From positions 2,176,001 to 2,240,000 of the forward strand of contig OZ220696.1 in the NCBI GenBank assembly GCA_965116495.1: DNA of 64,000 nucleotides. Reading direction: 5' to 3'. The notes beneath the pieces were generated by a model that was given only the letters and a program-made list of their open reading frames with translations, did not search any database and had not been told where the DNA came from. The translations under genes were made by a program, and so were the position numbers. Origin of the DNA: Gammaproteobacteria bacterium. GTDB lineage: Bacteria > Pseudomonadota > Gammaproteobacteria > Eutrophobiales > Eutrophobiaceae. Positions 31,066 to 52,838 of this stretch are shown here, one piece after another (position 1 is the first letter of the stretch; the number at the start of each line of letters is the position of its first letter).

Positions 31066-31242
31066 GATGATCCTTTATCCATATCCATACCTGTTTCCGT
31101 CAGTTCCCGCGTTAAGGTTTACGGGAACTTTTTCGTTATTGTAATCGATTCCGTCCATCCGTCATAGTGGACAGGGATTGTCCACTATCCAGCCACATAG
31201 ATGTGATTAGATGAGCCGCCCTCTGGGCGACATAGTATTTCA

Positions 31243-31269
31243 CTGGATTCCCGCATGCGCGGGAATGAC
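31243..31269. repeat. REP-like palindrome
   Basis: CTGGATTCCCGCATGCGCGGGAATGAC. Confidence 0.8.
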
Positions 31270-31353
31270 GAATGAGAATGTTTTCTGCTAGAATGCAAGA
31301 CTGATGGAAATAACTGGAGGAGACCGGCGTACGGAGTGCCGGCACACAGGAAT

Positions 31354-33048
31354 ATGGACGATTATCTACCCCGACTGGCAAGCTGGAGCGACCCCTGGTT
31401 CTGGCTGTGTTTTACCACCCTTCTTTATACGAATACCGTCATCGGCTTCTTCCCTCTCGCGTCGGACAGGGAGTTGACCGCGGCAGAGCACTTTTTAATG
31501 CACGCGCGGCGGCTCCTGCTGCTCATGTTCCTTGTTCTGTTCCCGGGCTTCCCATTGATCCTGTGGTTCCTGGCGACAAGCGTCACAGGCAGTGTCGCGG
31601 CCGCCAATAATATTGTGGATATAGTCATCATCAGCCGGGCCGGAAGGATGTGGGGGCTGGTAGCCGGCGGCCTGCTAGCCGGTCTGCTGACCCGGATCGT
31701 TTTCCTGCGCTACCTGTATCCGCGCTTCTCGTCCTGGTACATTTTCAGGCGGGTCTCGCAACGGGGCGACCAGGTATCCGATATACGGACCGAGGCCGAC
31801 CGCTACCGGGAAAAGAATTTTCGGCCCGGGAAATACTACAAGGCCGGGAAAATGTTTATCGGATTACGCCAGGATGACAAACCCCTGTACGTCGCAACGG
31901 AAGACTGGAAAAACTGGAACCAACGGATGGTAGGCGCTACCCAGACCGGCAAGGGTATCCTGTTCGGCGTGCAACTGGACCAGTCCGTACGTCAGGGGTT
32001 TTGTACGGTTTTCTTCGACGTGAAGCCGGACAGGCACGCACTGGGGATCATGAAAAAAGCCTGCAAAGAGACCGGCAGGCGGCTGGTCACCGTCGATTTC
32101 AACGGCGAACTCCCAGGGAAATGGTCGCCGTTCAGGACCGGCGCCGACCGAGAGATAAAGACCCGGCTGATGCAGGCCTATAACCTCGCAGAAAGAGGCG
32201 ACACGGCGGACTTCTACAAGATTGGTGAGCGGGAATTCCTTGAATCAGTTTTCGACAAGTGGAACAAGGAACTCATCGACCTGCCGAAACTGCTCAGGGA
32301 CTCGGCGAAACCACCACCCACCGTCACCAACCTGACCCGGGAGATGCTGGCTTTGTCCGCGCTGAAGCCGGGACGCAGCAAGGGGGTCGATATAGAACGT
32401 GTGCTGCGGGAAAACGCGGTACTCTACGTGCGTTCGTCTGCCACGGACCCGGTTGTCAAACGCGCCACCCAGGTATTCCTGTTATGCCTCCTGCAGGCCA
32501 CGACGCGCATGTATCGGCGCCGGGAACGATCCAGCCACCTGTTCATCGGCATAGACGAGGTGAAGTTCCTGGCTACCGATATCCTGGGGGACATGCTGGC
32601 GACCATCACGGGGTTCGATTGCCACCTCGCCATCGCCTACCAGAGCCTGGGCGACCTGAAATCCGTCAACAAACGACTGGTCAACGTGGAAGCCCTGGAG
32701 TTCAGCGTGGAGAACAACTGCAAAATGTCCCTGTACTACCAGCCCAACGACTTCGAGACAGCCGAATACGCCGCCCGGCAAAGCGGCACGAAACAGGCCA
32801 GCCGCTACCGCATGAACGTGGATATCAACAAAGCGGGCGGCGAGGTATACGCCGAGAGAAACCTGATCACCCAGGAAGAGGTGTACTACATCCACCCGAA
32901 TACCCTGATGATGCTGCCGTCCAGGGTGGCCATGGCAAAGATGCCGGGCAGACTGGCCGAGATCATCCACACAGCCTGGGTGGCCGTGGAGCCTGCTTAC
33001 CTGGACCCCCCTTGTCATTCCCGCGAAAGCGGGAACCCAGTCAATTAA
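31354..33048 (+). CDS. Type IV coupling protein-like ATPase (VirD4/TraD family)
   Basis: Three N-terminal TM segments, Walker A GATQTGKG, Walker B IGIDEV, AYQSLGDL, DFETAEYAARQSG. Confidence 0.82.
   Translation: MDDYLPRLASWSDPWFWLCFTTLLYTNTVIGFFPLASDRELTAAEHFLMHARRLLLLMFLVLFPGFPLILWFLATSVTGSVAAANNIVDIVIISRAGRMWGLVAGGLLAGLLTRIVFLRYLYPRFSSWYIFRRVSQRGDQVSDIRTEADRYREKNFRPGKYYKAGKMFIGLRQDDKPLYVATEDWKNWNQRMVGATQTGKGILFGVQLDQSVRQGFCTVFFDVKPDRHALGIMKKACKETGRRLVTVDFNGELPGKWSPFRTGADREIKTRLMQAYNLAERGDTADFYKIGEREFLESVFDKWNKELIDLPKLLRDSAKPPPTVTNLTREMLALSALKPGRSKGVDIERVLRENAVLYVRSSATDPVVKRATQVFLLCLLQATTRMYRRRERSSHLFIGIDEVKFLATDILGDMLATITGFDCHLAIAYQSLGDLKSVNKRLVNVEALEFSVENNCKMSLYYQPNDFETAEYAARQSGTKQASRYRMNVDINKAGGEVYAERNLITQEEVYYIHPNTLMMLPSRVAMAKMPGRLAEIIHTAWVAVEPAYLDPPCHSRESGNPVN
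33013..33041. repeat. REP-like palindrome translated as the C-terminus of the coupling protein
   Basis: TGTCATTCCCGCGAAAGCGGGAACCCAGT reads CHSRESGNP. Confidence 0.8.
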
Positions 33049-36413: not shown

Positions 36414-37619
36414 TTAGCCGACGCCGGCCATCGCTGAAGCCTTAATCTGCGTGACCGAAAGTCTATTAAGCGCATTGTCTATCAAGTTTACCGCATCATC
36501 AATATCTGCGTCTGTCGTGTCAAAGCCGAGACTGAATCGGATGGATGCTTCGGCATCTTCAGGGGATAGACCTATGGCTTTGAGAACGTGGGAAGGTTCC
36601 GGAATCCCGGATGTGCAGGCCGACCCGGTAGAAGCGGCAAGATGGGGCTGAAGCACCTGCAGAATATCCTGGGCGTAGAAACCTTCGAAGCAAATATTGG
36701 CATTGCCGGGGTGGCGGGATTCTTCGGTGGGGCCGTTCAATCGGATGGACCAGGGCAAGTCCGCCAATTTTTCGAGGAGGCGATCCCGTCTTTGACGCAG
36801 GAAGGTACGCTTTTGCCTCGACTCAGTACTACTCAGAAGTTCGGCAGCCGCACCCATGCCTACGCACAAAGCCGTAGGAACGGTGCCTGCGCGCAAACCG
36901 TTCTGTTGTCCACCCCCGTAGATAAGCGGTTCCAGGCGATCCTGCAACTCCCGGCGGATGTAGAGCGTGCCGATACCTTTCGGTCCGTACATCTTGTGGG
37001 CGGACAGACTCAACATGTCTACATGCTCGGCAACTCCCCGTATATCCATGGAAACGGGAGCCTGGGCGGCATCGCAATGAAATATGGCGCCTGCGTTTCT
37101 CACGAGTTCAGAAATTTCTTGGATGTCCTGTATTGTGCCAATTTCATTATTCACCGCCATGATGGAAACGGCGAGTACGTCTTCATCCAAGGCATCTTCC
37201 AGTGACGCCAACAGGACGCGGCCTTCCCTGTCGACGGTTAGATGCTCTACAGGAAGACCATGCTGGTCGGAAATTACCCGTCCGGCTGCAAGCACGCACT
37301 TGTGCTCAATCTCGCTGAGGATAAAACGTCTCCTTCTGCTTAATGAGCGAACGCGACGGGCAAGCCCAAGCAGGGCCATGTTGTTCGCTTCAGTGGCGCC
37401 TGACGTGAAAATGATCTCATCAGGGTCGGCGCCAATCAAAGCTGCGACTTGCGCTGCCGCCTGCTCCACGGCAAGAGAACTTTTCCAACCGAGTGTGTGG
37501 TCTGCTGAATGGGGGTTGCCGAAGGATTCCCTGAAATACGGCAGCATCCGGTCCAGGATCTGTTGATCGACGGGTGTGGTCGCCTGGTGATCCAGATAGA
37601 TGGTTTCTGAAATCCTCAT
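36414..37619 (-). CDS. sspA: Cysteine desulfurase (SspA/DndA/IscS-like)
   Basis: YLDHQATTP, FTSGATEANN, SAHKMYGPKG, STGSAC; divergent from the sspBCD-like genes with no isc/suf neighbours. Confidence 0.85.
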   Translation of the reverse strand: MRISETIYLDHQATTPVDQQILDRMLPYFRESFGNPHSADHTLGWKSSLAVEQAAAQVAALIGADPDEIIFTSGATEANNMALLGLARRVRSLSRRRRFILSEIEHKCVLAAGRVISDQHGLPVEHLTVDREGRVLLASLEDALDEDVLAVSIMAVNNEIGTIQDIQEISELVRNAGAIFHCDAAQAPVSMDIRGVAEHVDMLSLSAHKMYGPKGIGTLYIRRELQDRLEPLIYGGGQQNGLRAGTVPTALCVGMGAAAELLSSTESRQKRTFLRQRRDRLLEKLADLPWSIRLNGPTEESRHPGNANICFEGFYAQDILQVLQPHLAASTGSACTSGIPEPSHVLKAIGLSPEDAEASIRFSLGFDTTDADIDDAVNLIDNALNRLSVTQIKASAMAGVG

Positions 37620-37774
37620 TAATTTCAATCAGATATAAGAAAAAACCCCAAGCCGATAAAGTTTCTGACTTTGTTGCTGAAATATGCAAAAAAACGATAA
37701 CGTACGGATTGACTATAGCATACTCAATACATTAAAATCGAACTGGAGTTGTACTCCAGGAAGGAAATAGACTT

Positions 37775-38740
37775 ATGCCATATAAGCCACTGCTTGAAGC
37801 AAATTATCGCCCGTCATTCTCGGGACATGAGACCTTTCCCCTACGCTACGGATGGCTGAAAAAAGCATTCGACCGCGTTGCCGAAACTGAGCATTACTAT
37901 CATAATAAATCCCTGTGTTGGGCCGAAGACGCCATCGCACGCTTCGGTGTCGGAAAAAATATGGTTGCCTCCATACGCCATTGGGCAACAAGTTGTGATA
38001 TTATTGAAGAACCTGATAAGGAAGATTCAGTCAAAACGACAACACTTGGACAAAAGCTTTTTGGAAACAATGGGATAAAAGGGATTGACCCATATATGGA
38101 ACACCCCGCCACACTCTGGCTCATCCATTGGAAGTTGGCCGCCCAACCGAAGAAAACAACCTGGTTCTGGGCTTTCGGCCATTATCCGGCAGTTACCTTT
38201 TCCCGTAACCAATTCGTGCAAAAAATCGGGCGTCTTGCAAAGGATCGCGTGTGGCGTGTCTCAAATACGACTATCAAAAATGACGTTGCCTGTTTTATCC
38301 GGACTTATGCAGCACGGCAAGCAACGGGAAGAACCGGCCATGATGATGCACTGGAATCACCGCTGACGGAATTGGGATTGATCAAAACCGTAGGAGAAAA
38401 AGACGGATTTCGTTTTATGCGCGGCCCCAAAGCAACCCTCACTGACGGCGTGTTTGTATATGCCCTGCTGGATTTCTGGTCGCGCTACTCTGATGCCAAC
38501 ACATTGTCATTTGAAGCTCTTACTTACGAACCAGGCGGACCGGGGCGCGTGTTTGCCCTGGAAGAGAATGATGTAGTCGATCGCTTGACGGCGCTCGAAG
38601 ATATAACGAGTGGGAAGTTGCGATGGTCTGAGGCCGCCGGTTTGAAACAGGTGGTCCGCAATATTGATATCGACGAAGAAACAAAACTCCAATACCTGTT
38701 TTCCGATTATGACAGTTCAACCGTAGAGGGAACAAATTAG
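37775..38740 (+). CDS. sspB: DUF4007 protein (SspB-like nickase)
   Basis: FSGHETFPLRYGWLKK, GVGKNMVASIRHW, DPYME..LWLIHWKL, LESPLTELGLI. Confidence 0.88.
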   Translation: MPYKPLLEANYRPSFSGHETFPLRYGWLKKAFDRVAETEHYYHNKSLCWAEDAIARFGVGKNMVASIRHWATSCDIIEEPDKEDSVKTTTLGQKLFGNNGIKGIDPYMEHPATLWLIHWKLAAQPKKTTWFWAFGHYPAVTFSRNQFVQKIGRLAKDRVWRVSNTTIKNDVACFIRTYAARQATGRTGHDDALESPLTELGLIKTVGEKDGFRFMRGPKATLTDGVFVYALLDFWSRYSDANTLSFEALTYEPGGPGRVFALEENDVVDRLTALEDITSGKLRWSEAAGLKQVVRNIDIDEETKLQYLFSDYDSSTVEGTN

Positions 38741-38742
38741 TA

Positions 38743-41700
38743 ATGCTGAAAGAACACGTCCATATTGCCAGGCGTTTTTTGAGATCAATACGCATCGATA
38801 CTGATCTTACTGAAAGCTCGGCATTGGAAGGTTTTATTTGCCCGCAGTCATCCAGAGATGTCCTGATGACCATGGCACGCCACGTAACCGAAACCGGACA
38901 AGGCGCATTCACCTGGACCGGTCCGTACGGAAGTGGGAAGTCCAGCTTGGTCGTTGCACTGAGCGCATTGTTAAGCGGCAGTGCTTCTCTACGCGCGCAA
39001 GCGGGAAAGATATTCGGATGGGAATTGACGGATACCATCGCGGAAGCGATGCCCTCGGGAACTGAAGGATGGCGCATCGTGCCTGTGGTCGGTGTTCGGG
39101 ATGATCCTGTCAGGGTAATTGGAGAAGCCGCTCGACGGGAACTAGTCGTAAAACGCCGTCCTCGCGGCGGGTGGAGAGAAAGCAACCTGATAAAAGCGCT
39201 GACAGATGCCGCTGAATACAAGCCTGACAGGTACGGCGGGGTTGTCTTGTTCATTGACGAGATGGGCAAATTCCTGGAAAGCGCTGTCAGGGACGGTTCC
39301 GATATCTACGTCTTCCAGCAACTTGCGGAAGCGGCGTCACGGAGCAAGGGGCGCTTGCTGGTAATCGGTATACTGCACCAGTCATTCGAGGAGTATACCC
39401 ACCGGCTTTCCCATGAAATAAGGGACGAATGGGCCAAGGTACAAGGACGGTTCATAGACTTGGTGATCAATGCGACGGGCGAAGAGCAGATAGAACTGAT
39501 TTCCCGCGCAATCGAAAGTGATCGTCAACCCAAGATTATGGATGACCTTAGCTCCAATGTCGCTCAGGTTACGCTGCAAAATAACAAGATCGACATTGAT
39601 CGACTCGCCTCGAGGCTGACAGCATGCTGGCCCCTGCACCCGGTTGTCACCTGCCTGCTCGGCCCCATCTCGCGCCGTCGGTTCGGACAAAACCAGCGCA
39701 GCCTGTTCGGCTTTTTGAACTCGGCAGAGTTATTCGGGTTTCAGGATTTCCTGAAACACGCCGATGATGAGAAGTTATATACACCGGACATGCTCTGGGA
39801 TTACCTGCGCGCCAACCTGGAGCCATCCATATTGGCATCACCGGACGGCCATCGCTGGGCGTTGGCCGCCGAGGCGCTTGAACGGTGTGAATCTCAGGAC
39901 GGCAACGAACTACACATCAGTCTTTTGAAAACCATTGCCGTCATAGACCTGTTCAAGGAACGTTCAGGGATTATCGCAAACTTCAACGTACTGCAAACCT
40001 GTTTCCATGAAATACCCGACCAGGAACTCCCGGGCGCCTTGTTGAAGCTGAATAACTGGTCATTCACCATTTACAAAAAGTACCTTGAGACACATGCTAT
40101 TTTTGCCGGTAGCGATTTCGATATCGATCAAGCCACGCGGTCGGCGCTTGAACAGATACATGAGATAGATTTCAAGGAACTTAAATCACTAGCAGGCATT
40201 CAGCCCATTCTAGCCAAGCGGCACTATCACGAGACCGGGACGTTGCGATGGTTTGAGGTAAACATCATACCGCTCAGTGCTCTCCGTGATACTGTCGAGC
40301 ATTACCAGCCTGAGAAGGGGGCCATAGGCCAATTTATTCTTGCCGTACCCACCGCGGGTGAGAGCGAAGAAGAAGCAACAAAACTGTGTCGAGAAGCAGC
40401 CGACCATGATGCCCCCTGGGACAGTCTGGTCGGCATGTCGAAGGCATCATGGACGATTATTCCATTAGCCCGTGAACTGCTTGCATTGGAATGGGTAAGT
40501 GACGAACATCCTGAATTGGCGGGTGATTCTGTTGCTAGGCGGGAAGTTTCCGCACGCCTAGCAGCCCTGCAATCACTGCTTGAAACAGAATTGCACAAAT
40601 CCTTTGATAATGCCAAATGGTTTGGCAAATCACACACCGCCCAGCCCCTGAGGCAGGCTGAACTGAACAACATCGCATCAGAACTTGCAGACAGTCGTTT
40701 CAACCAATGTCCACACTTGCATAATGAACTGTTGAACCGGCAGAAACCGTCCGGCAGCGCCGTGGCAGCCCAAAATATATTGCTGCGACGCATGGTTCTG
40801 AACAAAGGGGAGGACAGGCTGGGCATCCGGAAATTCCCGGCAGAAGCCGGCCTGTTTGTTTCAATACTGGATGCGTCCGGGCTTTATCGGAAACGCAATG
40901 ATCAATGGCGATTCTTGCCTCCCGATAAACACTCGGACTCCTGTTGTCTTATCCCGATGTGGGAAGCTGCGAGCACGCTGGTACATGAAAAAACTATCAC
41001 CGTCACGGATTTGTATGATCTCTGGCGCAAACCACCCTTCGGTGTGAAAGACGGACTACTACCGGTTCTTTCCGTCGCATTCATTCTGTCACAACAGGAG
41101 AAACTGGCAGTCTACCGGGAAGGATTATTCAAAGCCCGATTTGACGACGTTGACGTTGACTACCTGGCAAAGGATCCGAACACCATCCAGGTCCGGTGGA
41201 TGGATTTATCCGACATAGCCCGCAGGTTATTGTCGGAAATGGCGGCAATAGTCCGGGACCTGGACGAAACCAACCGGCTCAGTCAACTTGAACCCATCGA
41301 CGTCGCCCGCGGATTGGTAGCGATATATGACCAATTACCACAATGGACTAAACGGACCATGCGGCTGTCAGCCAACGCGATCCACATCAGGGACATGTTC
41401 AAGCGCGCGCGCGATCCGAACAAGTTCCTGTTTGATGATATACCGGAAACACTGGGAGGAGATATTTCCCAAATCGACGAGGAAGCCCTGCACCGATTAG
41501 TAGAAAAAGTACGCGATGGTCTGACTGAACTGGCAAACGCCTATCCCTCAATGTTGCATAGGTTGCGAGAAACCCTGCTCTCCGAATTGGGTGTGCATAA
41601 TATCTCCCCGCAATCACTGAATGAACTGCGTGACCGCGCTGAAAACATCCGTCAGGTCGAAGGCGATTTCAAACTCGAAGCTTTCATCGGCAGGATTGCA

Positions 41701-42126
41701 CAATTCAATGATACCGGTGCAAGCATCGAAGATATAGCCAGCCTGGCGGCGAACAAACCACCCCGTCACTGGATTGATCCCGATCGCGACCGGACGACCG
41801 TCGAGATTGCTGAACTTTCGCAAAAATTTCTGCGGGCTGAATTATATGCTCGGGTTAAAGACCGACCTGACAAACGCCATGCCATGGCAGTAGTCGTCGG
41901 GATGGATGGCCGACCGACACCAGTTCATGAAGAATTTGCTATTGCTGACATGGATCGAAATCAGGTAGATCTATTAATCAAGCAAGTAAAAGACGCATTG
42001 GAGCACAGCGGAGAAAGACGCCGCAATATCATCCTGGCCGCCCTGGCAGAATTAAGCGCCTTGTATCTCAAACAGGCTGCATCCGATCATACGGATACAG
42101 AACAAAAGGAACAGACGGCGTCATGA
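38743..42126 (+). CDS. sspC: Large P-loop ATPase (SspC-like)
   Basis: 1127 aa; TGPYGSGKS, IDEMGKFLE, EWAKVQGRF, FGQNQRSLFGFL, PPFGVKDG. Confidence 0.85.
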   Translation: MLKEHVHIARRFLRSIRIDTDLTESSALEGFICPQSSRDVLMTMARHVTETGQGAFTWTGPYGSGKSSLVVALSALLSGSASLRAQAGKIFGWELTDTIAEAMPSGTEGWRIVPVVGVRDDPVRVIGEAARRELVVKRRPRGGWRESNLIKALTDAAEYKPDRYGGVVLFIDEMGKFLESAVRDGSDIYVFQQLAEAASRSKGRLLVIGILHQSFEEYTHRLSHEIRDEWAKVQGRFIDLVINATGEEQIELISRAIESDRQPKIMDDLSSNVAQVTLQNNKIDIDRLASRLTACWPLHPVVTCLLGPISRRRFGQNQRSLFGFLNSAELFGFQDFLKHADDEKLYTPDMLWDYLRANLEPSILASPDGHRWALAAEALERCESQDGNELHISLLKTIAVIDLFKERSGIIANFNVLQTCFHEIPDQELPGALLKLNNWSFTIYKKYLETHAIFAGSDFDIDQATRSALEQIHEIDFKELKSLAGIQPILAKRHYHETGTLRWFEVNIIPLSALRDTVEHYQPEKGAIGQFILAVPTAGESEEEATKLCREAADHDAPWDSLVGMSKASWTIIPLARELLALEWVSDEHPELAGDSVARREVSARLAALQSLLETELHKSFDNAKWFGKSHTAQPLRQAELNNIASELADSRFNQCPHLHNELLNRQKPSGSAVAAQNILLRRMVLNKGEDRLGIRKFPAEAGLFVSILDASGLYRKRNDQWRFLPPDKHSDSCCLIPMWEAASTLVHEKTITVTDLYDLWRKPPFGVKDGLLPVLSVAFILSQQEKLAVYREGLFKARFDDVDVDYLAKDPNTIQVRWMDLSDIARRLLSEMAAIVRDLDETNRLSQLEPIDVARGLVAIYDQLPQWTKRTMRLSANAIHIRDMFKRARDPNKFLFDDIPETLGGDISQIDEEALHRLVEKVRDGLTELANAYPSMLHRLRETLLSELGVHNISPQSLNELRDRAENIRQVEGDFKLEAFIGRIAQFNDTGASIEDIASLAANKPPRHWIDPDRDRTTVEIAELSQKFLRAELYARVKDRPDKRHAMAVVVGMDGRPTPVHEEFAIADMDRNQVDLLIKQVKDALEHSGERRRNIILAALAELSALYLKQAASDHTDTEQKEQTAS

Positions 42127-42965
42127 ATACTGAAGCCAGTAAGCGGCATGTGCTGGGTCTGTCCGGCGGGCGAGACAGCGCGGCCTTGGCCGTATATATG
42201 CGGCAACACCACCCGGAATTGAATATCGAATACTTTTTTACAGACACTGGCAAAGAACTACCGGAAGTCTACGAATATCTTGGTCGTCTTGAAGGTTTCC
42301 TGGGCCAGCCGATATTACGGCTGAATCCAGACCGCGATTTCGACTTCTGGCTCAAGCAGTACAACGATTTCCTACCTTCGCCCCAAAGCCGCTGGTGTAC
42401 CAGGCAACTGAAACTTCGGCCATTCGAACAATGGCTGCGTCCCAAGCTCGAAAATGGGGAAACCATCTACAGCTATGTCGCAATCCGTTCTGACGAAGAG
42501 TACCGCGAGGGCTATGCTTCCAAAAACGACAGGCTCATAGTGCGACTGCCTTTTAAGGAAGTTGGCGTCGACAAGGCCGGAGTGCTCGAGATACTTGACG
42601 GCGCCGGCCTGGGCCTGCCGACATACTACGAATGGCGAACCCGTAGTGGTTGTACCTTCTGTTTCTTCCAGCAGAAAATCGAATGGGTCCGGTTGAAAGA
42701 ACATCATCCTGACGCATTCGAGGAAGCCAAGGCTTATGAAAAGAACTCAGTGGGCCACGGATCTCCTTTCACCTGGAGTCAAGGCGAAGCCCTTGATGAA
42801 TTGGAAAAGCCGGAACGGATCAGTCAAATCAGGCAGGAGCATGAACAGCGTCTGTTACGTATGCGTTGTAAGGTCCAGCCTAATCCGTTACGGCCTGATA
42901 ATGATCCGCTGGATATTGATGATTTATACGGTCGGGCGAAGGTTTGTTTGGCTTGTCATAAATAG
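42123..42965 (+). CDS. sspD: PAPS-reductase family protein (SspD-like)
   Basis: PP-loop SGGRDS, RWCT, SGCTFCFFQ, terminal CLACHK; ATGA overlap with sspC. Confidence 0.88.
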   Translation: MNTEASKRHVLGLSGGRDSAALAVYMRQHHPELNIEYFFTDTGKELPEVYEYLGRLEGFLGQPILRLNPDRDFDFWLKQYNDFLPSPQSRWCTRQLKLRPFEQWLRPKLENGETIYSYVAIRSDEEYREGYASKNDRLIVRLPFKEVGVDKAGVLEILDGAGLGLPTYYEWRTRSGCTFCFFQQKIEWVRLKEHHPDAFEEAKAYEKNSVGHGSPFTWSQGEALDELEKPERISQIRQEHEQRLLRMRCKVQPNPLRPDNDPLDIDDLYGRAKVCLACHK

Positions 42966-42982
42966 AAACTGGAGAAAGATAC

Positions 42983-43507
42983 TTGAATTTCGATTTACTG
43001 GTAGACTTTGTAAATGAAGCAACCGAAGAAATAGCAAAGTATCAGGTTGAGTTCACCTTGTCTTCCCCGAATATGAGAGTAAACCAATATGTAGTTCCTT
43101 TCCTTAAGTGGGATTCAATAAGTTACGGTGATGCTGAGATATGTAAAGTCCCAAATGACAAACGAGGAATATATGCTTTTGCCATCTGTCAACTGAGTGA
43201 CGTGCTACCGCCTCATGGATACATTCTATATGTTGGAATTGCAGGCCGCGACTCTAAGCGCTCATTGAGAGAACGCTACAAAGACTATCTTAATGAAAAA
43301 AAAGTCATCAAATCATCTCCTAGAATTGCGCGAATGATCGGCACTTGGCATGATGTGTTGCGATTTTTTTTTGCTCCTGTAAGTGATGACGTTTCAGCAG
43401 ATGATCTGAAAAAACTAGAAAAAGAATTGAATTCAGTTCTAATACCACCGTTTTCTGAGAACGACTTAGAGGCAGACATTAAACGCAAACGGAGGGCGTT
43501 TCGATGA
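42983..43507 (+). CDS. GIY-YIG nuclease-like protein
   Basis: RGIYAF..ILYVGIA..SLRERYKDY..LEKEL..PPF. Confidence 0.7.
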   Translation: MNFDLLVDFVNEATEEIAKYQVEFTLSSPNMRVNQYVVPFLKWDSISYGDAEICKVPNDKRGIYAFAICQLSDVLPPHGYILYVGIAGRDSKRSLRERYKDYLNEKKVIKSSPRIARMIGTWHDVLRFFFAPVSDDVSADDLKKLEKELNSVLIPPFSENDLEADIKRKRRAFR

Positions 43508-44763
43508 AAAAATTGAGAAAGATTGTTCTACCTGCAATTCGCGGAATTATGGGTGACTGGGTATATTATTCATGCCTTATGGACTTGAAAGAGTTAAGCT
43601 CAAGAGTTCACTACGCAGAGGAGATTCATAAAAATCAGGCACTCTCAGATATGATTCAAAGAAGGCTAAAGGCCGGACGAAGTGCACAAATTGCTGAATA
43701 TCTCAAGATTCAGCCGGAACGTTTCTTTAATTCTCTCGTCGTTGCAACTTATGGCGGACAGCCTAACTGGCACGCTCTATCTAATGTTAGTGGCAAAACA
43801 GTTAACAATGAATTACGCGATATACGAGATGCAACTATCGCATCAGTCGGATTCTTAACTCTAAGAGGGGATGAAAAACTTTTTGCATTAGACGGACAAC
43901 ACCGGCTTGCTGGTATAAAAAAAGCTATTAGAGATGAAATGGAGCAAGATCCGTTTGATGAAGTATCAGTAATTTTTGTTGCCCACAAAGATACCTCCAA
44001 AGGCTTAGAGAGAACTAGAAGATTATTCACGACCCTCAATAAGACTGCGCGGCCGGTGTCTAAAGGCGATATTATTGCTTTAGATGAAGATGATGTAATG
44101 GCTCTTTGTGCTAGGCGACTTATTGAAGAAACTGATTTCTTTTTCGGGAATCGCATAGCATTCGTAGCAAATAATAACTTACCTGGGGCAAATATCACTA
44201 GCCTCACAACAATCGGAAATTTATATGACATTTTGACTATTTTGTTCACCAATGGGCAATCAGACTTGAAAAAAAGGAAAAGTGATCTACAAAGAGTACG
44301 ACCAAACGATGATATTCTTGAGCAGTACTATAAATATTCTGAGGGGTTTGTATCGCTACTTGGTGAAAATTTCGAAGAGTTATATGAATTTTTCGCTGCC
44401 AAAGATACTACCGCTATTGTAAAAAAATACCGGGGAAATTTTGGAGGCCGCGCAACTTTCCGTCCAATTGGTCTAGATGTATTTACAAGAGTAATAGCTC
44501 AACTCTCAAAAGAGATGACACTCGCCGAAGCTATTAAACTTGTTGCAAAATTGCCTCGAAATCTTTCTGATGCGCCTTACGAAGGATTGATGTGGGATTC
44601 AAACCAAAAGATAATTCTCAACGGGCATAAAGTAACTTTGCGCGAGGTGCTTTTATTCATGCTGGGAAGGAACACCAAAAAATATTCAGAACCGATACTG
44701 TTAGATAGATATAGGCGAGAAACTGATAACAACAAAATAAACCTACCCGAAAAACTAATTTAG
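43504..44763 (+). CDS. DGQHR-domain (DndB-like / ParB-fold) protein
   Basis: PAIRGIMG, IQR, FFNSLVV, ALDGQHRLAG, RRLFTTLNK. Confidence 0.88.
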   Translation: MKKLRKIVLPAIRGIMGDWVYYSCLMDLKELSSRVHYAEEIHKNQALSDMIQRRLKAGRSAQIAEYLKIQPERFFNSLVVATYGGQPNWHALSNVSGKTVNNELRDIRDATIASVGFLTLRGDEKLFALDGQHRLAGIKKAIRDEMEQDPFDEVSVIFVAHKDTSKGLERTRRLFTTLNKTARPVSKGDIIALDEDDVMALCARRLIEETDFFFGNRIAFVANNNLPGANITSLTTIGNLYDILTILFTNGQSDLKKRKSDLQRVRPNDDILEQYYKYSEGFVSLLGENFEELYEFFAAKDTTAIVKKYRGNFGGRATFRPIGLDVFTRVIAQLSKEMTLAEAIKLVAKLPRNLSDAPYEGLMWDSNQKIILNGHKVTLREVLLFMLGRNTKKYSEPILLDRYRRETDNNKINLPEKLI

Positions 44764-44770
44764 CAATAGC

Positions 44771-44943
44771 TGCGTAATCCGGCTGATCGTGAACACTCAT
44801 TCTGGTTGAACGTGAACACCGATTCCGGTTCATCGTGAACACCTGTTCCGGTTGAACGTGAACACTTTTCCGGTCATTTCCGGAATCACTGTTCACGTTC
44901 CCGGAATCACCGTTCACAATCAACCGGAATCATTCTCAACGCA
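44771..44943. mobile_element. IS21-like non-autonomous remnant (fused ends, no transposase)
   Basis: Starts TGCGT, ends ACGCA; CGTGAACAC repeated at 44788, 44811, 44834, 44857 (23-bp period), then inverted GTTCAC copies at 44891 and 44912. Confidence 0.7.
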
Positions 44944-45015: not shown

Positions 45016-45450
45016 TTATGTAACTAGTTTTTCCAATTCATCAAACAAAGACCACAGCGGTCGCTCATCTGGATCAGACATTATTTGAATCAAGTAAGGC
45101 ATCCCAGCATTTGCGACACCTAGGCAATAATCAAAAATTTCCCTGTAATCAGACAAAGACTCTATATCCTCAGTTGTACCTAAGTATGCGAGTAGCATAT
45201 GGTTAATTCTGTATGGGTCAGTAGAGAAAATTGTTGCAGGAGTTGCGTTGTACGTGTCAGCGTCTGGCTCTGGGTCTAAGCCTTTCGAAAGACCTATTAA
45301 AAAAGCCATATACCAGAAATCTACTTGTCTTTTAAATGGGGCATACTCTGGTGTACTCTTATTTCCTCCTGTGCGGCTATAACTAACAACTGACTCTCTA
45401 TATTTGTTAGGTATTTCCACGTTGTATGATGCGAAAGGATTAGCAATCAT
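45016..45450 (-). CDS. Small hypothetical protein (PbeD-like position)
   Basis: 144 aa, AGGAG RBS, last gene of the operon; PFKRQVDFWYMAFLIG..ANAG pattern reminiscent of small ATPase partners in DNA-sulfur loci. Confidence 0.6.
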   Translation of the reverse strand: MIANPFASYNVEIPNKYRESVVSYSRTGGNKSTPEYAPFKRQVDFWYMAFLIGLSKGLDPEPDADTYNATPATIFSTDPYRINHMLLAYLGTTEDIESLSDYREIFDYCLGVANAGMPYLIQIMSDPDERPLWSLFDELEKLVT

Positions 45451-45462
45451 ATCTAAACTCCT

Positions 45463-47604
45463 TTAAGAAACAGATTCGTTATTTACTCTTTCGCATGTAT
45501 GGCAACGTGATCTATGGTCACAACTGCATCTAATAATGCGAGCATCATTTACTTCCGCCTGGTGTACTAACATTCTCGGGTAGTGTGCAGGATTGGTTAT
45601 CGTATAAACCTTACCAGCCTTTGTATCAATAATGCTTTCAACACCCGCTATCTCGTCGTGCGTCAGGAAGAGAACAACTTGACTACCTTCCATAATGGTT
45701 CGTCGAAGAACAGATCTCTTTACGAAACCAGACATCATCCCTAGAGGGGTATCAATAACATTAGGTGCTTCGACTTGACTTACCTTTGTTAATGCCAAAA
45801 TAAATGCAAGAGTGATGGCCCTACGTGATGCTCCATTCAAATCTTGATCGGGATTGAGTTGGTGACCATTTGGCCCGTACACCAAGATATCGTAGTCTTC
45901 GGTCAACTCAGCTTTTGTAATCAATGTGAGGTCGTTGACCTCGGGCTCAGCACCGATCATCTCTAAAAATATGCGATTCATTTCATCACTTACCTTCTTT
46001 AGCTCTTCTTTCACCAAATGTTCCTCTATTTGGTGGAATATATTTTGAACATTACGTGATAGATTGAGCTTGTCCACAGACGAATCAGTTTTAGTAAGTT
46101 TCTTTTCGATTTTCTTCCTATTATCTTCGGCGTCCCGTTTGCGTTGTTTAGATTCTTCAATCGAACTCTCACGTTGGCCAAGTCGTATTCTCGCCGAATC
46201 CAATTTACGAGATAACGAATATTCCAGTTCTCGGTATTCGTTTAGTGAAGTATCATCTATAGCGTCGCGATCAGCGATGAGCTTCTTCAGTCTTTTTTGG
46301 TCAGCAGAAAGGTCCGACATGAACTCATAAAAATCCTTATTCCGCGAAGCATAATATTGAACCCACCCATCTGAACGCGACTTATCAAATTGTTCGCTTC
46401 TCACTGCGTAGAATAGGCTTGTCGCTGCCTCCTGTAACGCGTCGGAGGCTCGACTGTCCTCTATAGATTCTTGAATTGAGTCCCTTGCTTTCATCCCAAT
46501 TTTTGTTTCTGTAGATAAATCTGCACCACAAAAACACTTGTCACGGCTAAGAAGCTCTTCAAGTATAGGGATATTTACTTTTGGGAGTCGCTTCTTCTTA
46601 CTCATGCCATTTAGAAGTGCTAGACCTTTTTTTGCTGACTTAGATATAAGTACGGCTGATAAATGATCGGAATTAAGCAGGGTAGATATATCTTCTAAGG
46701 CTTTCTTTGAGCCTTGAGTACCACGTTCGATATCTTTTCTACACTTGTTTATGTCCGCTACCAATTTGGATTTGTCACCAAGCTTTAAAGCCTCTTCAAT
46801 CTTTTTTCGTGTGGAATTCAGTGTGCTACTGCCCTCACTGATCTCACTCTCGAGCGTTTTTCTTTCCTTTTCCCACTCAGTAATATCTTCCTCAAATCCT
46901 ACGATGCGATCATTAAATTTTTCAAGCTCTTTTGCATAATCAGTGTCATCAATCCTTGAGCCAAATTTGCTAGCGGCTTTATCGAGGTGGTTAATCGTCT
47001 TATCTAAAATATCGAGTCCTAATAATGCCTCAATGGCATCGCTCACACGCTTTCTTTTTACACCCCGAGTTGCTGCTGCTTCGATGAACGACATGGCGCT
47101 ATCACCGTCAGTAAAATACACATCCTTCAAGGCACCGGGAATACTGCTCTCGATAATTTCTTCCACATCGGAAGCCAATATACGTTCAGACCCCTCGGGC
47201 TTAATTTCAAAGAGTATTACTCCCTCTGCCTCACGGCGTATGTCCCCCGAATCACTAGGATACTCAATACACGTCCTAAGTAATCTGTATTGTTTTTTTT
47301 GGAGCTCATGAGCACTGCGCCCGAGAGTTACTACTTGGTCTGTCTCGAACTCTATCTCTACTGACACCTCAACTTTCTGGATAGTCTCCTTCATATCTGA
47401 AGGGAAAAGGGGGTATTGTTTACCAATACCAGGCAATGCTCTGTTTCCAAAAAGACCCCATAGCAAAGCAGTTTTGCATGTGGTTTTACCAGATTCGTTT
47501 GCAGCTCGTATTACAGTAAGATTTTTCTTTTCGTCACATGAAAAATCCAGTGTGAGGTCTTTCAATAAACGAAAATTATTAATACTTGCTCTTATCAACT
47601 TCAT
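45463..47604 (-). CDS. SMC/Rad50-like ABC ATPase (PbeC/DndD-like)
   Basis: Walker A AANESGKTT, YFTDGD, coiled coils with a CFCG hook, signature LNGASRR, Walker B VIDTPLG, LTHDE. Confidence 0.88.
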   Translation of the reverse strand: MKLIRASINNFRLLKDLTLDFSCDEKKNLTVIRAANESGKTTCKTALLWGLFGNRALPGIGKQYPLFPSDMKETIQKVEVSVEIEFETDQVVTLGRSAHELQKKQYRLLRTCIEYPSDSGDIRREAEGVILFEIKPEGSERILASDVEEIIESSIPGALKDVYFTDGDSAMSFIEAAATRGVKRKRVSDAIEALLGLDILDKTINHLDKAASKFGSRIDDTDYAKELEKFNDRIVGFEEDITEWEKERKTLESEISEGSSTLNSTRKKIEEALKLGDKSKLVADINKCRKDIERGTQGSKKALEDISTLLNSDHLSAVLISKSAKKGLALLNGMSKKKRLPKVNIPILEELLSRDKCFCGADLSTETKIGMKARDSIQESIEDSRASDALQEAATSLFYAVRSEQFDKSRSDGWVQYYASRNKDFYEFMSDLSADQKRLKKLIADRDAIDDTSLNEYRELEYSLSRKLDSARIRLGQRESSIEESKQRKRDAEDNRKKIEKKLTKTDSSVDKLNLSRNVQNIFHQIEEHLVKEELKKVSDEMNRIFLEMIGAEPEVNDLTLITKAELTEDYDILVYGPNGHQLNPDQDLNGASRRAITLAFILALTKVSQVEAPNVIDTPLGMMSGFVKRSVLRRTIMEGSQVVLFLTHDEIAGVESIIDTKAGKVYTITNPAHYPRMLVHQAEVNDARIIRCSCDHRSRCHTCERVNNESVS

Positions 47605-47825
47605 TATCGATCTCCTAATTCCTTTATCCGATCTGCTACGAACGAAACTTCATCCATGATGCTCTCGATCATTCGTGATCTAGGGACAGATTCGGAACTA
47701 GCCTCCAACATGTATATTTTGTTGCAAAGCAATTTAATTTTCTCCTTCTGCCCATCAGTCCAGGAATCTGTCGAGTCCACTTCCCGAGAAATCATCTCTG
47801 ATATCTTTTTGTATCCAATACTCAT
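47604..47825 (-). CDS. Small helical protein (PbeB-like position)
   Basis: 73 aa, start/stop overlap with both neighbours. Confidence 0.65.
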   Translation of the reverse strand: MSIGYKKISEMISREVDSTDSWTDGQKEKIKLLCNKIYMLEASSESVPRSRMIESIMDEVSFVADRIKELGDR

Positions 47826-49939
47826 TTATCTCTCTCCAGCATAGATAACATTTCATTCATTAATTCAATGGAACCATCACTCTCAAGCCCGTTTGAACTG
47901 AGTTTAGAGAAGAAACTCATGCGCTCAAATTCGTTACGCAGAAGACTTTTAAGATCCCTATCCATCCTCCATGAATCCAACTTGGGTATTACAACAAAGT
48001 CATGTACAACAGCCTTTTCTTTTTGAGTACTGGGTGACAACCGTAGTACTCTGCCCAATCTCTGAACCCATTGACGCTTTACTGTATTACTTGCAAGAAA
48101 ATATGCAGTTTCTGTCTGAGGTATATTAAATCCTTCATCTAAGACACGCTTTGAGGTAAGAACTTGGTACTCTCCAGCTTCAAATGACTGAACTATTCGT
48201 TTTAGAGTCTTGGGACTACTTGTTTCGTCTGCGGTCACCTGATGAAAGTTTACTGCACGTTTAGATAAAAGTTGATTTAGTGCTTCTAACTGCTCAGGAT
48301 TTTTGTCTGTGCAAAAGAATAGTGTTCTTTGAATCTCGTATTTTTTCTTAGGTAAAATTTCAACTAGCCTAGAAATCTTTCCTGAAGCTGCCTCAACGAT
48401 TCTTCTTCTCTGTAAACAGAGCAGTTTCCAACGCTCTTTCTCGGAATTCCCATCATCCAACTCAGCTGCGTAGCTCAATTTACGAATCTTATCTGTTAAG
48501 TCAGACCATTGCTCTTGCTCTTCATAATCAAGTTGAACTTTGTGAACGTGGTAATCATATGGGACAAGGCAGCTTCCAATCGCTTTCTCTAGAGGAAAGT
48601 CATAAACCACGTCTCCAAAGTAATTTATCAAAAACTCAGTTCCACATTCATCAAACTGTCGAACATGAGTTGCTGATAGACCCATTAAATATTTAAAGCA
48701 ATCCCTAGCCTCAGCCTGAAAACCAATGCTTCCTAGGTTGTGAACTTCGTCCCCAATTAACATTATCGGCATAATCATACTGGCTTCTTCCAGAATTACA
48801 GTCAAATCAGACTTGAGTGCCTCATGGGTTAGCACAACAACCTCATTATGAGAGACCTCATGCCTTAGTTTTCTGATTTGTCCCTTAAGCACTCTCTTGA
48901 CTTCTCTTTTGGAAACTCCATAGGTATTTTGTGGAATAACAGAAAATGACCTCACATCATCGGACCACTGATTAAGCAAAGCTTTTGTAGGTACAGCAAT
49001 TACAATGAGTAATTTTTCTTCTCTTGAGCTAACTTTGCTCGCTGCAACTAAAGCGGTAAGTGTTTTACCTCCACCTGTAGCTATCGAGAGAATACCCTTT
49101 CCTTTTTTCATCCACGCATTTATCGCTTCGCCCTGATGTGCATACTCTCCAGTTTGATAATTTAACCATTTCGGGATAATCAACTTGGACTTTATATCTC
49201 CTACTTCACTAGAGCCTAATTCTTCAAGAATCTTGGCATTCAAATAAGATGGCCAGTCGCATACACCGCGTTTCTTCTCATTAATCTCAGAAAGGTATTC
49301 AATTGTTTTTTTATTGACTTCAATAGTCTCTACACCCTCGTATCTACCACTCCAGAGCAACTCGAAAGTCTCTCGAATTATATCGACACCTTGCTCACCT
49401 GCAGTGTTATCAAATTCTTTACTTATACCTATCTGTTCAGTATTTAGTGAAAACCCTTTGCCAGTTGCATTAACTGAACCGTGAATCGCTATTCCGCCGA
49501 ACTCAGTTTCAAAAATCCAACATTTTGCATGAAAAAGCCCTTGTTTCTGCAAACCTAGTTTTAGACTAAGTCGACCCGTTGCAACTAAATAAGCCAATGC
49601 GCTAACAGCTCTTGTTCGGAGATTGTCTTCTGTGAGCTCAAATCCAGGGAAAAGCAAAGAGATTATATTTTCGTTATTGACAATAGCAATTTTTAGCGCT
49701 TTTAAATCTTGCTCTTCTAAGTTTGGACCTACAATAAACCTTATTGAGCTGCCTTTAGCTGCTAAAAAGTGGCTTAATGAGCGGGCTAATTCGCTTAAAG
49801 CTCCACTAGTAAAATATCCACTCATACAAGATATTTTTGAAGCAATTTCAACGATAGGTAGAAATACTTCACGATCGATATCATGCTTGTTAACAAAGTA
49901 AACCGGCTTTAGTTCGGCGATTGTGTTTGAGGTAGTCAA
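47822..49939 (-). CDS. PLD(HKD)-nuclease plus SF2 helicase fusion (PbeA-like)
   Basis: GYFTS, HAK..GSVN, ATGGGKT, DEVH, GLSAT, LDEGFNIP, QRLGRVLR. Confidence 0.88.
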   Translation of the reverse strand: MTTSNTIAELKPVYFVNKHDIDREVFLPIVEIASKISCMSGYFTSGALSELARSLSHFLAAKGSSIRFIVGPNLEEQDLKALKIAIVNNENIISLLFPGFELTEDNLRTRAVSALAYLVATGRLSLKLGLQKQGLFHAKCWIFETEFGGIAIHGSVNATGKGFSLNTEQIGISKEFDNTAGEQGVDIIRETFELLWSGRYEGVETIEVNKKTIEYLSEINEKKRGVCDWPSYLNAKILEELGSSEVGDIKSKLIIPKWLNYQTGEYAHQGEAINAWMKKGKGILSIATGGGKTLTALVAASKVSSREEKLLIVIAVPTKALLNQWSDDVRSFSVIPQNTYGVSKREVKRVLKGQIRKLRHEVSHNEVVVLTHEALKSDLTVILEEASMIMPIMLIGDEVHNLGSIGFQAEARDCFKYLMGLSATHVRQFDECGTEFLINYFGDVVYDFPLEKAIGSCLVPYDYHVHKVQLDYEEQEQWSDLTDKIRKLSYAAELDDGNSEKERWKLLCLQRRRIVEAASGKISRLVEILPKKKYEIQRTLFFCTDKNPEQLEALNQLLSKRAVNFHQVTADETSSPKTLKRIVQSFEAGEYQVLTSKRVLDEGFNIPQTETAYFLASNTVKRQWVQRLGRVLRLSPSTQKEKAVVHDFVVIPKLDSWRMDRDLKSLLRNEFERMSFFSKLSSNGLESDGSIELMNEMLSMLERDK

Positions 49940-50795: not shown

Positions 50796-50902
50796 TTTTG
50801 AATGCCATTAAAGTCAAGCTTGAGTTTAAAGGTGCTTTCGATCCGGAATATACACACGATTATACGGTTAGAAATTTAGCTTGAATACTTCTCAGGAAAA
50901 AC

Positions 50903-51034
50903 ACAGTTGTAACAAAGACGGTAATCTTGCAGTCCATACGTTGCCTGAAAAACGCGGGACTGCGCTGCTTGATTTATTGTCAACATTTGATGATGAATTT
51001 ATAGAAATTCTTGAAGAAAATTACCAAAACCGGC
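50903..51034 (+). repeat. About 132-bp direct repeat, copy 1
   Basis: Highly similar to 52707-52838 (offset 1804 bp). Confidence 0.9.
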
Positions 51035-51205: not shown

Positions 51206-52603
51206 TCAGCGCGCCGACTGCATCTGTTTCCACTCGATAAATTCCGGTACCCGAAGCCTGTATCGCGCCAGTGCCGCCTCATGCAGGCGCTGCAATTCAT
51301 CGTCAACCAGACCAATGAACCTGTCGATATCTTCATCAGGGACACGGCCTTCTGTCAGGCATGCAATGGATTCCGCAGTGGCTGCAAGCCTGTCCTTGAC
51401 GATGCGGCCTATGACTGATTCAATTATCGGCCTGTATTTATGCCTGAACGGATCGGGCCTGCCGGCAAGGTCCTTTGAGAGATTGTACCGTTGGCATGAC
51501 CGTTCATAGGCCCAGACGAACACGTCGATCAGCAGGTCGGGCTGGTTCAGTTCGTACACGCCCAGCATCCCTTCAATATAGGTTTTTTTGGGGACGCCAA
51601 CGAACGATAACGGACACAGCCTGTTTTTGATCAGCGGGATGTTGGCGCCCAGCCGCGCCACCCGCTTATTGACATCGGTAAAAGGCTGCAGGTACGGGAT
51701 ATGAACCATCAGGAAAAACGCCTGCTCAAACGGGTCGTCGATGGCCTTTGCCTTGTCCAGAATCAGCCTGAAATACTGCTCTACCTGTTGGGGGACCGCC
51801 ATTGGCATGTAAACAGACCCGCCTATCTCAACGATCTTGTTCCGCAAGCGCCCGCTGTCATCCGGGCCGCTCATTAAACTGTCCGACAATACGGCGTGCA
51901 GGCTCAGGAAGGTGTACATGTTGAAATCCACGTATTCCACCTCCTGAACCAACATCTCTATGGCGCGTTTGTGGTTCAGGATCATCGTCGCCTCAAAAGG
52001 GTCTTTTCCTTCGGCGAGCCTGCCGGCTTCAATCAGGTTCTGTGTGTCCATGAGCGAATAGGTGTTTCCTTCAAGCCTGCTTGATGCCCAAGGCAGGTCT
52101 ATCAGCAACCTGTCAATTAAAACGAGCGGATAGGTCCCGTCATCTGCCTGTCCGGGTTCCTTGAGTGTCCCGATGTTGCGCAGGTGCGCCCTGATGTCGT
52201 CCGGCAAGTAGCTCGTCACATTTGGCCCGTAACTCTCCAGGTAGTCTCTATGGTAGGAGACGGGATCACGGCCGTGAACAGGCCTTTGCACATACTCCCT
52301 GATCGTCTTGCTCTCATCCGACACGGGGATCTGGATTTCAACGTCGGGTTCCGGTATTGCTGAGGAGGCTGGTGATCTGCCAGGTGGCTTCCTGTAATGC
52401 ACCGCACGCGCTTTCCCGACCCGGATGATTTTCCCTTCATCAACGAGGTCTGCCAGCCTGCGCATGAACGTTCGGTGACTTGGAGGGTCATCCTGCATCC
52501 TTTCCTTCAGGGCTTTAAATATGTCAGCGCTACCGAGGCCCTTATCGTTATCGGACGCGAGTACAATCTCTGATATCACTTCTGTTAAATCATTAATTTT
52601 CAT
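51206..52603 (-). CDS. Fic family protein with N-terminal wHTH
   Basis: WASSRLEGN inhibitory-type motif, YLQPFTDVNKRVARL Fic motif variant. Confidence 0.9.
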   Translation of the reverse strand: MKINDLTEVISEIVLASDNDKGLGSADIFKALKERMQDDPPSHRTFMRRLADLVDEGKIIRVGKARAVHYRKPPGRSPASSAIPEPDVEIQIPVSDESKTIREYVQRPVHGRDPVSYHRDYLESYGPNVTSYLPDDIRAHLRNIGTLKEPGQADDGTYPLVLIDRLLIDLPWASSRLEGNTYSLMDTQNLIEAGRLAEGKDPFEATMILNHKRAIEMLVQEVEYVDFNMYTFLSLHAVLSDSLMSGPDDSGRLRNKIVEIGGSVYMPMAVPQQVEQYFRLILDKAKAIDDPFEQAFFLMVHIPYLQPFTDVNKRVARLGANIPLIKNRLCPLSFVGVPKKTYIEGMLGVYELNQPDLLIDVFVWAYERSCQRYNLSKDLAGRPDPFRHKYRPIIESVIGRIVKDRLAATAESIACLTEGRVPDEDIDRFIGLVDDELQRLHEAALARYRLRVPEFIEWKQMQSAR

Positions 52604-52686: not shown

Positions 52687-52706
52687 TTCAAGTCGACCAG
52701 CAAAAG

Positions 52707-52838
52707 ACAGTTATAACAAAGACGCTAATCTTGTAGTCCATACATTGCCTGAAAATCGCGGGACTGCGCTGCTTGATTTATTGTCAACATTTGATGACGA
52801 ATTTATAGAAATTCTTGAGGAAATTTACCTGAACCAGC
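52707..52838 (+). repeat. About 132-bp direct repeat, copy 2
   Basis: Matches 50903-51034. Confidence 0.9.

Follow-up and report, generated by a model that had tools for sequence, protein, structure and literature searches.

Introduction

The phosphorothioate (PT)-gated single effectors SspE and DndI are described as a DUF262 NTPase fused to an HNH nickase, with the PT-modulated ParB-fold NTPase controlling the nuclease (PMC11662687, PMC13251355), and in both the Tyr that senses PT lies in a P-x-Y-Q motif (PMC13251355). SspFGH is reported to be additive with SspE (PMC8092258). DndB binds the promoter of its own operon and regulates it, and it limits the PT level (PMC4507180). The question whether proteins of the DndB family are defence enzymes or repressors only is raised in PMC10853773, and a two-protein effector made of the gene pair analyzed here would bear on it.

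The pair, a predicted GIY-YIG nuclease gene (ORF1) and a gene for a DndB-like DGQHR protein (ORF2), appears in print once, as a catalogue entry with no PT link, and is otherwise uncharacterized. Table S5B of Rousset et al. (2022; PMC9122126) lists it as system 144, ‘DndB | GIY_YIG_domain’, with 14 occurrences; the entry is a catalogue row, neither the row nor its section draws the link to phosphorothioation, and the cloned-plasmid file of that paper holds no DndB entry. No functional study of the pair was found in full-text searches of a largely open-access literature, and the accessible parts of PMC4619093, PMC12839542 and PMC12914056 do not describe it.

Here, we analyzed the pair in a window of 64,000 nt (the whole stretch of DNA under study, contig OZ220696.1 of assembly GCA_965116495.1; coordinates are window positions) from a Gammaproteobacteria bacterium of the Eutrophobiaceae, whose genome is a single contig, 99.5% complete.

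Results

Gene order and composition at the locus

ORF1 and ORF2 lie directly 3′ of the operon sspBCD, which together with sspA makes up a complete PT writer (Table 1). Three features noted in the initial annotation were all borne out: 17 bp between sspD and ORF1, an ATGA overlap and a lower GC content, with 39–40% GC in the pair vs. 48–52% in sspBCD (ORF1 39.8%, ORF2 39.0%; sspB 48.4%, sspC 52.0%, sspD 51.4%; genome 54.7%). Both genes are likewise below sspC in GC in all 17 of the homologous loci that were measured, so that low GC is a family trait and was rejected as a mark of recent insertion at the window. A terminator-like site was sought in the spacer and none was found, and read-through from sspBCD would be consistent with this absence; a promoter and terminator scan gave no excess when compared with shuffled sequence.

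Facing the pair is a convergent CxC/Pbe-like operon, overlooked in the initial annotation, which is another candidate effector at the locus. We considered it as SspFGH and rejected this, the genes being PbeA/PbeC-like by PADLOC; the SspF, SspG and SspH models matched none of nine locus proteins, and a three-gene SspFGH with an FtsK-type SspH is absent there. Full-length SspE or SspH was not found in the host genome: outside the locus there is one short FtsK-domain match only, and three DUF262 genes were discarded as SspE since only ∼100 of 766 model positions match. The CxC/PbeAC-like module of the window stands with an Ssp, not a Dnd, writer, a pairing seen again in several homologous loci and in either orientation, and it adjoins the ORF1-ORF2 pair in only part of them.

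The 173-bp non-coding element between the pair and the convergent module contains inverted arrays of internal repeats (23 bp and 21 bp) and has short inverted ends, and we take it to resemble a miniature IS21-family element; partial relatives occur in the host-genome contig at ∼1,362,160 and ∼3,249,820. Farther on, a 137-bp direct repeat (91%) flanks a Fic-domain gene. The secretion ATPase and coupling genes upstream of the island suggest a conjugative element nearby.

Table 1. Features of the window at and around the ORF1-ORF2 pair
Feature	Position	Strand	Basis or remark
Type II/IV secretion ATPase and TraG/VirD4-like coupling genes	30067-33048		upstream of island
sspA, cysteine desulfurase (PT writer)	36414-37628	-	PADLOC SspA, 443 bits
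sspBCD operon (PT writer)	37775-42965	+	
sspB	37775-38740	+	PADLOC SspB, 364 bits
sspC	38743-42126	+	PADLOC SspC, 1349 bits
sspD	42123-42965	+	PADLOC SspD, 447 bits
TAG stop of sspD	42963-42965	+	
17-nt spacer with GGAG ribosome-binding-like site	42966-42982	+	between sspD stop and ORF1
ORF1, 174 aa, TTG start, stand-alone GIY-YIG nuclease domain (predicted)	42983-43507	+	fold and invariant residues
ATGA, ORF1 stop overlapping ORF2 start	43504-43507	+	
ORF2, 419 aa, predicted full-length DndB paralogue	43504-44763	+	PF14072, TIGR03187, ParB fold
Non-coding element, 173 bp	44771-44943		between pair and convergent module
Convergent CxC/Pbe-like module (candidate effector)	45016-49939	-	faces pair
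Small protein of the module, putatively DndE-like	45016-45450	-	by position
Coiled-coil ABC ATPase of the module	45463-47604	-	PADLOC PbeC, 176 bits
PLD-SF2 helicase of the module	47822-49939	-	PADLOC PbeA, 588 bits
Direct repeat, first copy	50898-51034		137 bp, 91%
Fic-domain gene	51206-52603		between repeat copies
Direct repeat, second copy	52702-52838		137 bp, 91%

ORF1 belongs to the GIY-YIG superfamily

No PADLOC, Pfam or NCBIfam model matched ORF1, and its identity rests on a fold search and on invariant residues. Relatives numbered 417 in a word-indexed search and 519 cluster representatives in a profile search. When the AF2 model (pLDDT 75.5) was compared with 48,161 chains in a VIA structure search, the top seven rows were all GIY-YIG proteins: T4 EndoII (Z 7.9, rmsd 3.1, 106 aligned), the UvrC N-domain (7.3), a Grx N-domain (7.1), I-TevI (6.3), Hpy188I (6.0), PD-T4-3 (5.8) and Eco29kI (5.5), and the next row had a Z of 4.8. 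Each of these values is middling, and all seven rows are concordant. The top Foldseek rows were also GIY-YIG, but with E > 0.001, and the Atlas cluster of ORF1 is labelled ‘putative GIY-YIG’ (0.98).

The motif set comprises G62-x-Y64 and Y83-x-G85, R98, Y102 and E146. Y64, Y83, G85, R98 and E146 do not vary among 109 divergent ORF1-family sequences, and Y102 is present in all but one; we presume that Y64, Y83, R98, Y102 and E146 have the catalytic roles mapped from I-TevI. Column 158, where GIY-YIG proteins usually have a conserved C-terminal Asn, holds N in 49, S in 33 and V in 18 of the 109, with Ser in the clade of the window, and D161 is kept in 91. ORF1 has no recognizable added DNA-binding domain, and a weak search of 7992 candidates gave no longer or fused forms. 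By its fold and invariant residues ORF1 is a member of the GIY-YIG superfamily; judging from the model and the conserved residues, it is likely an active nuclease.

ORF2 resembles DndB over its full length

ORF2 scored above the cut-offs of PF14072 (DndB; 94.8 bits vs. 29.1) and TIGR03187 (DGQHR; 107.3 bits vs. 58.85), and far under that of the DndB equivalog TIGR03233 (57.2 bits vs. 328). It is the sole PF14072 protein of the host genome and is alignable with DndB end to end at ∼20% identity. A tree separated all 37 family rows from six DndBs by a branch with 100/100 support, at which long branches meet. By sequence, then, ORF2 is a full-length DndB paralogue that stands outside canonical DndB. 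The two domain calls of the initial annotation, GIY-YIG and DGQHR, thus agree with the fold search, the invariant residues and the PF14072 and TIGR03187 matches.

The N-domain has a ParB/Srx fold (VIA Z: PadC 7.2, pNOB8 ParB 6.9, sulfiredoxin 6.8, KorB 6.7, SspE 4.4) with I51-Q52-R53, D130-G-Q-H-R134 and F175-x-x-x-N179. Every one of the 37 rows has QR and FxxxN; DGQHR is found in 36, the remaining one having DGQNR. The C-domain is helical, and comparison with the VIA structures assigned no fold to it. A PDB sequence search with the ORF2 profile gave no match at E 0.1, and Foldseek gave none for either the ORF1 or the ORF2 model at E 0.001.

The initial annotation related the DGQHR motif to the DGQQR of the DUF262 domain of SspE; ORF2, however, is a DndB paralogue and not a DUF262 protein. 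ORF2 does not match PF03235 (DUF262), its motif is DGQHR and not DGQQR, it has no HNH (no PF07510 match), and the hhalign probability with SspE, calculated against a single sequence, was 0.2%; only the ParB fold is shared. At the position preceding QR, 35 of the 37 ORF2s have Ile and two have Leu, whereas the SspE of locus L010 and two DndI-like proteins have Tyr, a correspondence made by motif and not by superposition. With the PT-sensing Tyr replaced, PT sensing by ORF2 would need another surface.

The two genes form one unit

A pair not conserved together would have told against the initial annotation, but the two genes are conserved together. Among 38 homologous loci, which were found from ORF1 by close-family patterns and lean to the clade of the window, ORF2 is directly 3′ of ORF1 in 34, and the other four are at a contig edge (two) or have a truncated ORF1 (two, one beside an IS transposase). 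The ORF1 stop and the ORF2 start overlap in 33 of the 34 adjacent pairs, with starts as given by the ORF caller. Of 401 genomes sampled, four had the ORF1 family, own genome included, and strong ORF2 matches (≥273 bits) were in the same four, adjacent. Eight weak ORF2 matches were seven canonical DndBs next to dndC and one protein cut by a contig end, so that, this contig-edge case aside, no ORF2 of the family was seen without ORF1 in the sample. All five plasmid records with ORF2 at ≥38% identity also have ORF1.

Pairwise identities of ORF1 and ORF2 correlated with a rho of 0.87, vs. 0.52 and 0.54 with SspD (27 Ssp loci), values that are descriptive since kin are not independent. Two more order-level searches gave 2 of 301 genomes each, one new in each, so the module is rare. 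On these sequence comparisons the pair is a real, conserved and mobile two-gene module. In genome G935 (L084:5980-6228, L071:7711-7980) an sspBCD-ORF1-ORF2 locus has its GIY-YIG gene split in two by an integrated phage of ∼35 kb.

The pair accompanies Ssp and Dnd writers and other effectors

sspD was present in 30 of the 38 homologous loci and directly 5′ of the pair in 29 of these, in agreement with the slot first noted; dndB was present in one locus and SspH in one, and in the remaining six the sequence 5′ of ORF1 is no longer than 1.04 kb. Beyond these loci, the pair lies no more than ∼16 kb from ssp or dnd genes in five more genomes, three plasmids and one ICE. In the genomes, the pair faces sspD (G085), lies beyond sspBCD-sspFGH at ∼16 kb from sspD (G099), follows sspD (G513), directly follows dndBCDE (G709) or lies by dndDE-A (G084). 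It stands with Ssp genes on a Roseobacter plasmid, heads sspFGH on the Rhizobium K1/93 plasmid, precedes dndBCDEA on the Rhizobium NXC14 plasmid and faces dndBCDE on a Salmonella ICE. These neighbourhoods cover three of the five plasmid matches, H3 and H4 (same identity as H2) being set aside; the PT-link counts also set aside L074 (divergent, with a 109-aa GIY-YIG and 28% ORF2) and L062 (contig edge). Wherever the flanks of a chromosomal or plasmid locus were adequate, ssp or dnd genes were present. On the ORF2 tree the Ssp label needs three changes. In Dnd loci a canonical dndB adjoins the pair, and therefore ORF2 is not the local DndB.

Other effectors stand alongside the pair. In L010 a full SspE (1082 bits) is encoded 0.6 kb 3′ of it; SspFGH accompanies it in L004, L020, L043 and G099 (SspH fragments in L027 and L030), DUF262-DUF1524 DndI-like genes in L041 and L079, and DndH in L054. 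It also co-occurs with DndFGH, with CxC/Pbe modules and with a helicase-GHKL-PLD triplet. It follows that the pair is not bound to act as a substitute for SspE. The suggestion that it is a split analogue of SspE fits the host genome, which has no full-length SspE or SspH, but not L010, where the pair does not replace the SspE beside it.

Three arrangements were seen in passing. The triplet of SF2 helicase, GHKL ATPase and PLD-family genes beside sspBCD recurs (L025:11913-16306, L006, L007, L011, L023, L042, L053 and others) and matches no full PADLOC system. In five loci (L014:3306-4470, L021:5456-6661, L028, L032, L053) sspC and sspD are separated by a two-gene insert, coding for a ∼185-aa unknown protein and a SAM-dependent methyltransferase, which in L006 lies elsewhere in the island. 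In E. coli PEC209 (L081:18778-20457) a DGQHR protein that appears as two pieces (101 and 281 aa) lies between dndE and dptH and adjoins a small membrane-type gene.

Prophage copies and their E. coli hosts

ORF2 relatives were found in five viral records, and three of these hold an intact pair without ssp or dnd, one in a P2-like and two in lambdoid contexts. In the P2-like prophage the pair alone fills the gpQ-gpA slot, which is a defence hotspot of P2 (PMC9122126). The catalogued system 144 is of the same family: its proteins WP_086048488 and WP_064761658 are ∼24% and ∼40% identical to ORF1 and ORF2. A further viral record, a large provirus (L074:7655-10559), has after its lysis genes a divergent pair with a short GIY-YIG and a DGQHR protein, followed by an HD-domain (dGTPase-like) gene. 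L071 was considered as a phage-borne copy and rejected; it is a host sspBCD record with ORF1 split by a phage.

Among 5426 complete E. coli genomes, two carry the P2 cassette with the pair. Both hosts carry dndBCDE-dptFGH, unlinked and 1.15 and 2.6 Mb away, when compared with a background of dndC matches in 207 of 5426 genomes (3.8%). The two blocks over which their dnd islands align show identities of only 84% and 77%, suggesting that the islands were acquired separately. The hosts are close kin, however (99.97% identical over a 19-kb core stretch), and the lineage may simply be dnd-rich; with n = 2 the co-occurrence is suggestive only.

A PAPS-reductase-domain gene is present in four of the five viral records, and in one of them it is a true SspD; a 94%-complete provirus with the pair has none. 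The P2-type PAPS-reductase gene is in 67 E. coli genomes and the pair in only two, and the P2 portal is in 1662. The phage PAPS reductase beside P2 gpA is thus a weak candidate for a private PT writer. Phage genes of this domain with weak SspD/DndC similarity (L078:16026-17033, L073:9288-10196, L083:7678-9156) may possibly have a role in DNA modification.

Discussion

By analogy with DndI and SspE, the pair may be a mobile, PT-coupled, two-protein anti-phage effector in which the DndB-like protein controls the predicted GIY-YIG nuclease in trans, a reading on which we are evenly divided. The folds, the intact motifs, the adjacency, the co-variation, the PT link and the co-existing effectors support it. 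Set against it are the Ile or Leu in place of the sensing Tyr, the lack of a fused ORF1-ORF2 protein in the weak search, the Ser in the Asn column of ORF1, the provirus that has the pair and no PAPS-reductase gene, the kinship of the two E. coli hosts and the lean of the 38 loci to the clade of the window. ORF1 and ORF2 would bind each other; ORF2, as an NTPase sensing PT, would bind DNA and hydrolyze nucleotide in a PT-dependent manner, and hydrolysis on PT-marked DNA would switch or release ORF1, which would nick or cut unmarked phage DNA and spare marked host DNA. The family serves both writer types, so the sensor would not be tied to one PT motif. It is conceivable, if doubtful, that the pair is a split, motif-agnostic PT reader-nuclease in which a DndB-family NTPase licenses the separate GIY-YIG nuclease, which takes single-strand Ssp or double-strand Dnd marks and with which phages borrow the sulfur marks of the host against competing phages. 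Temperate phages would then carry the pair without a writer, and the host marks would serve as the self signal.

We hold it to be unlikely that the pair is a guard or suicide backup, in which ORF2 restrains ORF1 and frees it upon nucleotide depletion or loss of the PT machinery, with destruction of the cell's own DNA; the PT link would then point to what is guarded and not to a DNA mark that is read. Suicide backup is the role proposed for stand-alone URI/GIY-YIG nucleases at the borders of Dnd loci, and DndB may work via nucleotide pools and be an effector itself (Rakesh, 2024; PMC10853773). Tight coupling of the two genes, the absent sensing Tyr and the finding that the pair is always additional to another effector module would fit such a guard. 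In contrast, the nuclease gene comes first, whereas in toxin-antitoxin modules the regulator is usually first, and two unrelated writer complexes would be served more easily via a shared DNA mark than via shared protein contacts.

That the pair is a self-sufficient, PT-free defence system which merely accumulates in defence islands appears quite improbable. The initial annotation had offered an independent two-gene system, and this stands insofar as the pair is its own mobile unit, stands by itself in the cargo slots of P2 and lambdoid prophages, has 14 occurrences in the P2 hotspot (PMC9122126) and has changed its partner system several times (the three label changes on the ORF2 tree). It does not stand for the chromosomal and plasmid loci, since every adequately flanked one has ssp or dnd nearby; the position directly after sspD in 29 of 30 loci, and after dndE in G709, and the two dnd-positive prophage hosts that were checked also argue against it.

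There is little to recommend writer-side homeostasis or repair, with ORF1 nicking PT sites or stalled intermediates and ORF2 limiting or turning over PT, even though the pair stands in the writer operon whichever effector comes next, DndB limits the PT level (PMC4507180) and ORF2 is its paralogue, and the UvrC N-domain is the second fold match of ORF1. The pair also occupies prophage defence slots far from writers, elsewhere heads sspFGH or faces sspD, and is in 4 of 401 genomes vs. at least seven dndB-dndC loci in the same sample. Finally, full-length similarity to DndB, which binds the promoter of its own operon (PMC4507180), would allow ORF2 to be a promoter repressor only, with ORF1 a passenger, but this is scarcely credible when ORF2 is not seen without ORF1 (one contig-edge case aside), the ORF1 catalytic residues are kept in 109 of 109 sequences and canonical dndB co-occurs.

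If the pair is such a split reader-nuclease, the DndB family would gain a direct role as effector. The natural 1.7-kb E. coli version makes PT dependence directly testable in laboratory strains with existing Dnd and Ssp plasmids.

When compared with known systems, the pair is like DndI (IscS-DndBCDE-DndI) and SspE (SspABCD-SspE) in its ParB fold, its QR and DGQxR motifs, its predicted nuclease and its place beside a PT writer, and DndI and SspE can likewise add to other effectors (PMC11662687, PMC13251355). In contrast, (i) it consists of two proteins, with a GIY-YIG and a DndB-type DGQHR domain, whereas SspE and DndI are one protein with HNH/DUF1524 and a DUF262 DGQQR domain; (ii) its family serves both Ssp and Dnd and co-occurs with true SspE and DndI-like genes; and (iii) Ile takes the place of the PT-sensing Tyr. 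The pair lies outside the SspE/DndI family, having neither the DUF262 DGQQR, nor the fused HNH, nor that Tyr. ORF2 is like DndB (TIGR03233) in its Pfam family, its DGQHR, QR and FxxxN motifs and its full-length alignment, but unlike DndB it is tied to a nuclease gene, is found with Ssp and in prophages, and does not head dndCDE. ORF1 is like the stand-alone restriction nucleases T4 EndoII, Eco29kI, Hpy188I and PD-T4-3 in fold and catalytic residues, at 11–24% identity; to our knowledge, these enzymes work without a coupled ParB-fold partner. A two-protein effector that joins a GIY-YIG nuclease to a DndB-like protein would be a new architecture.
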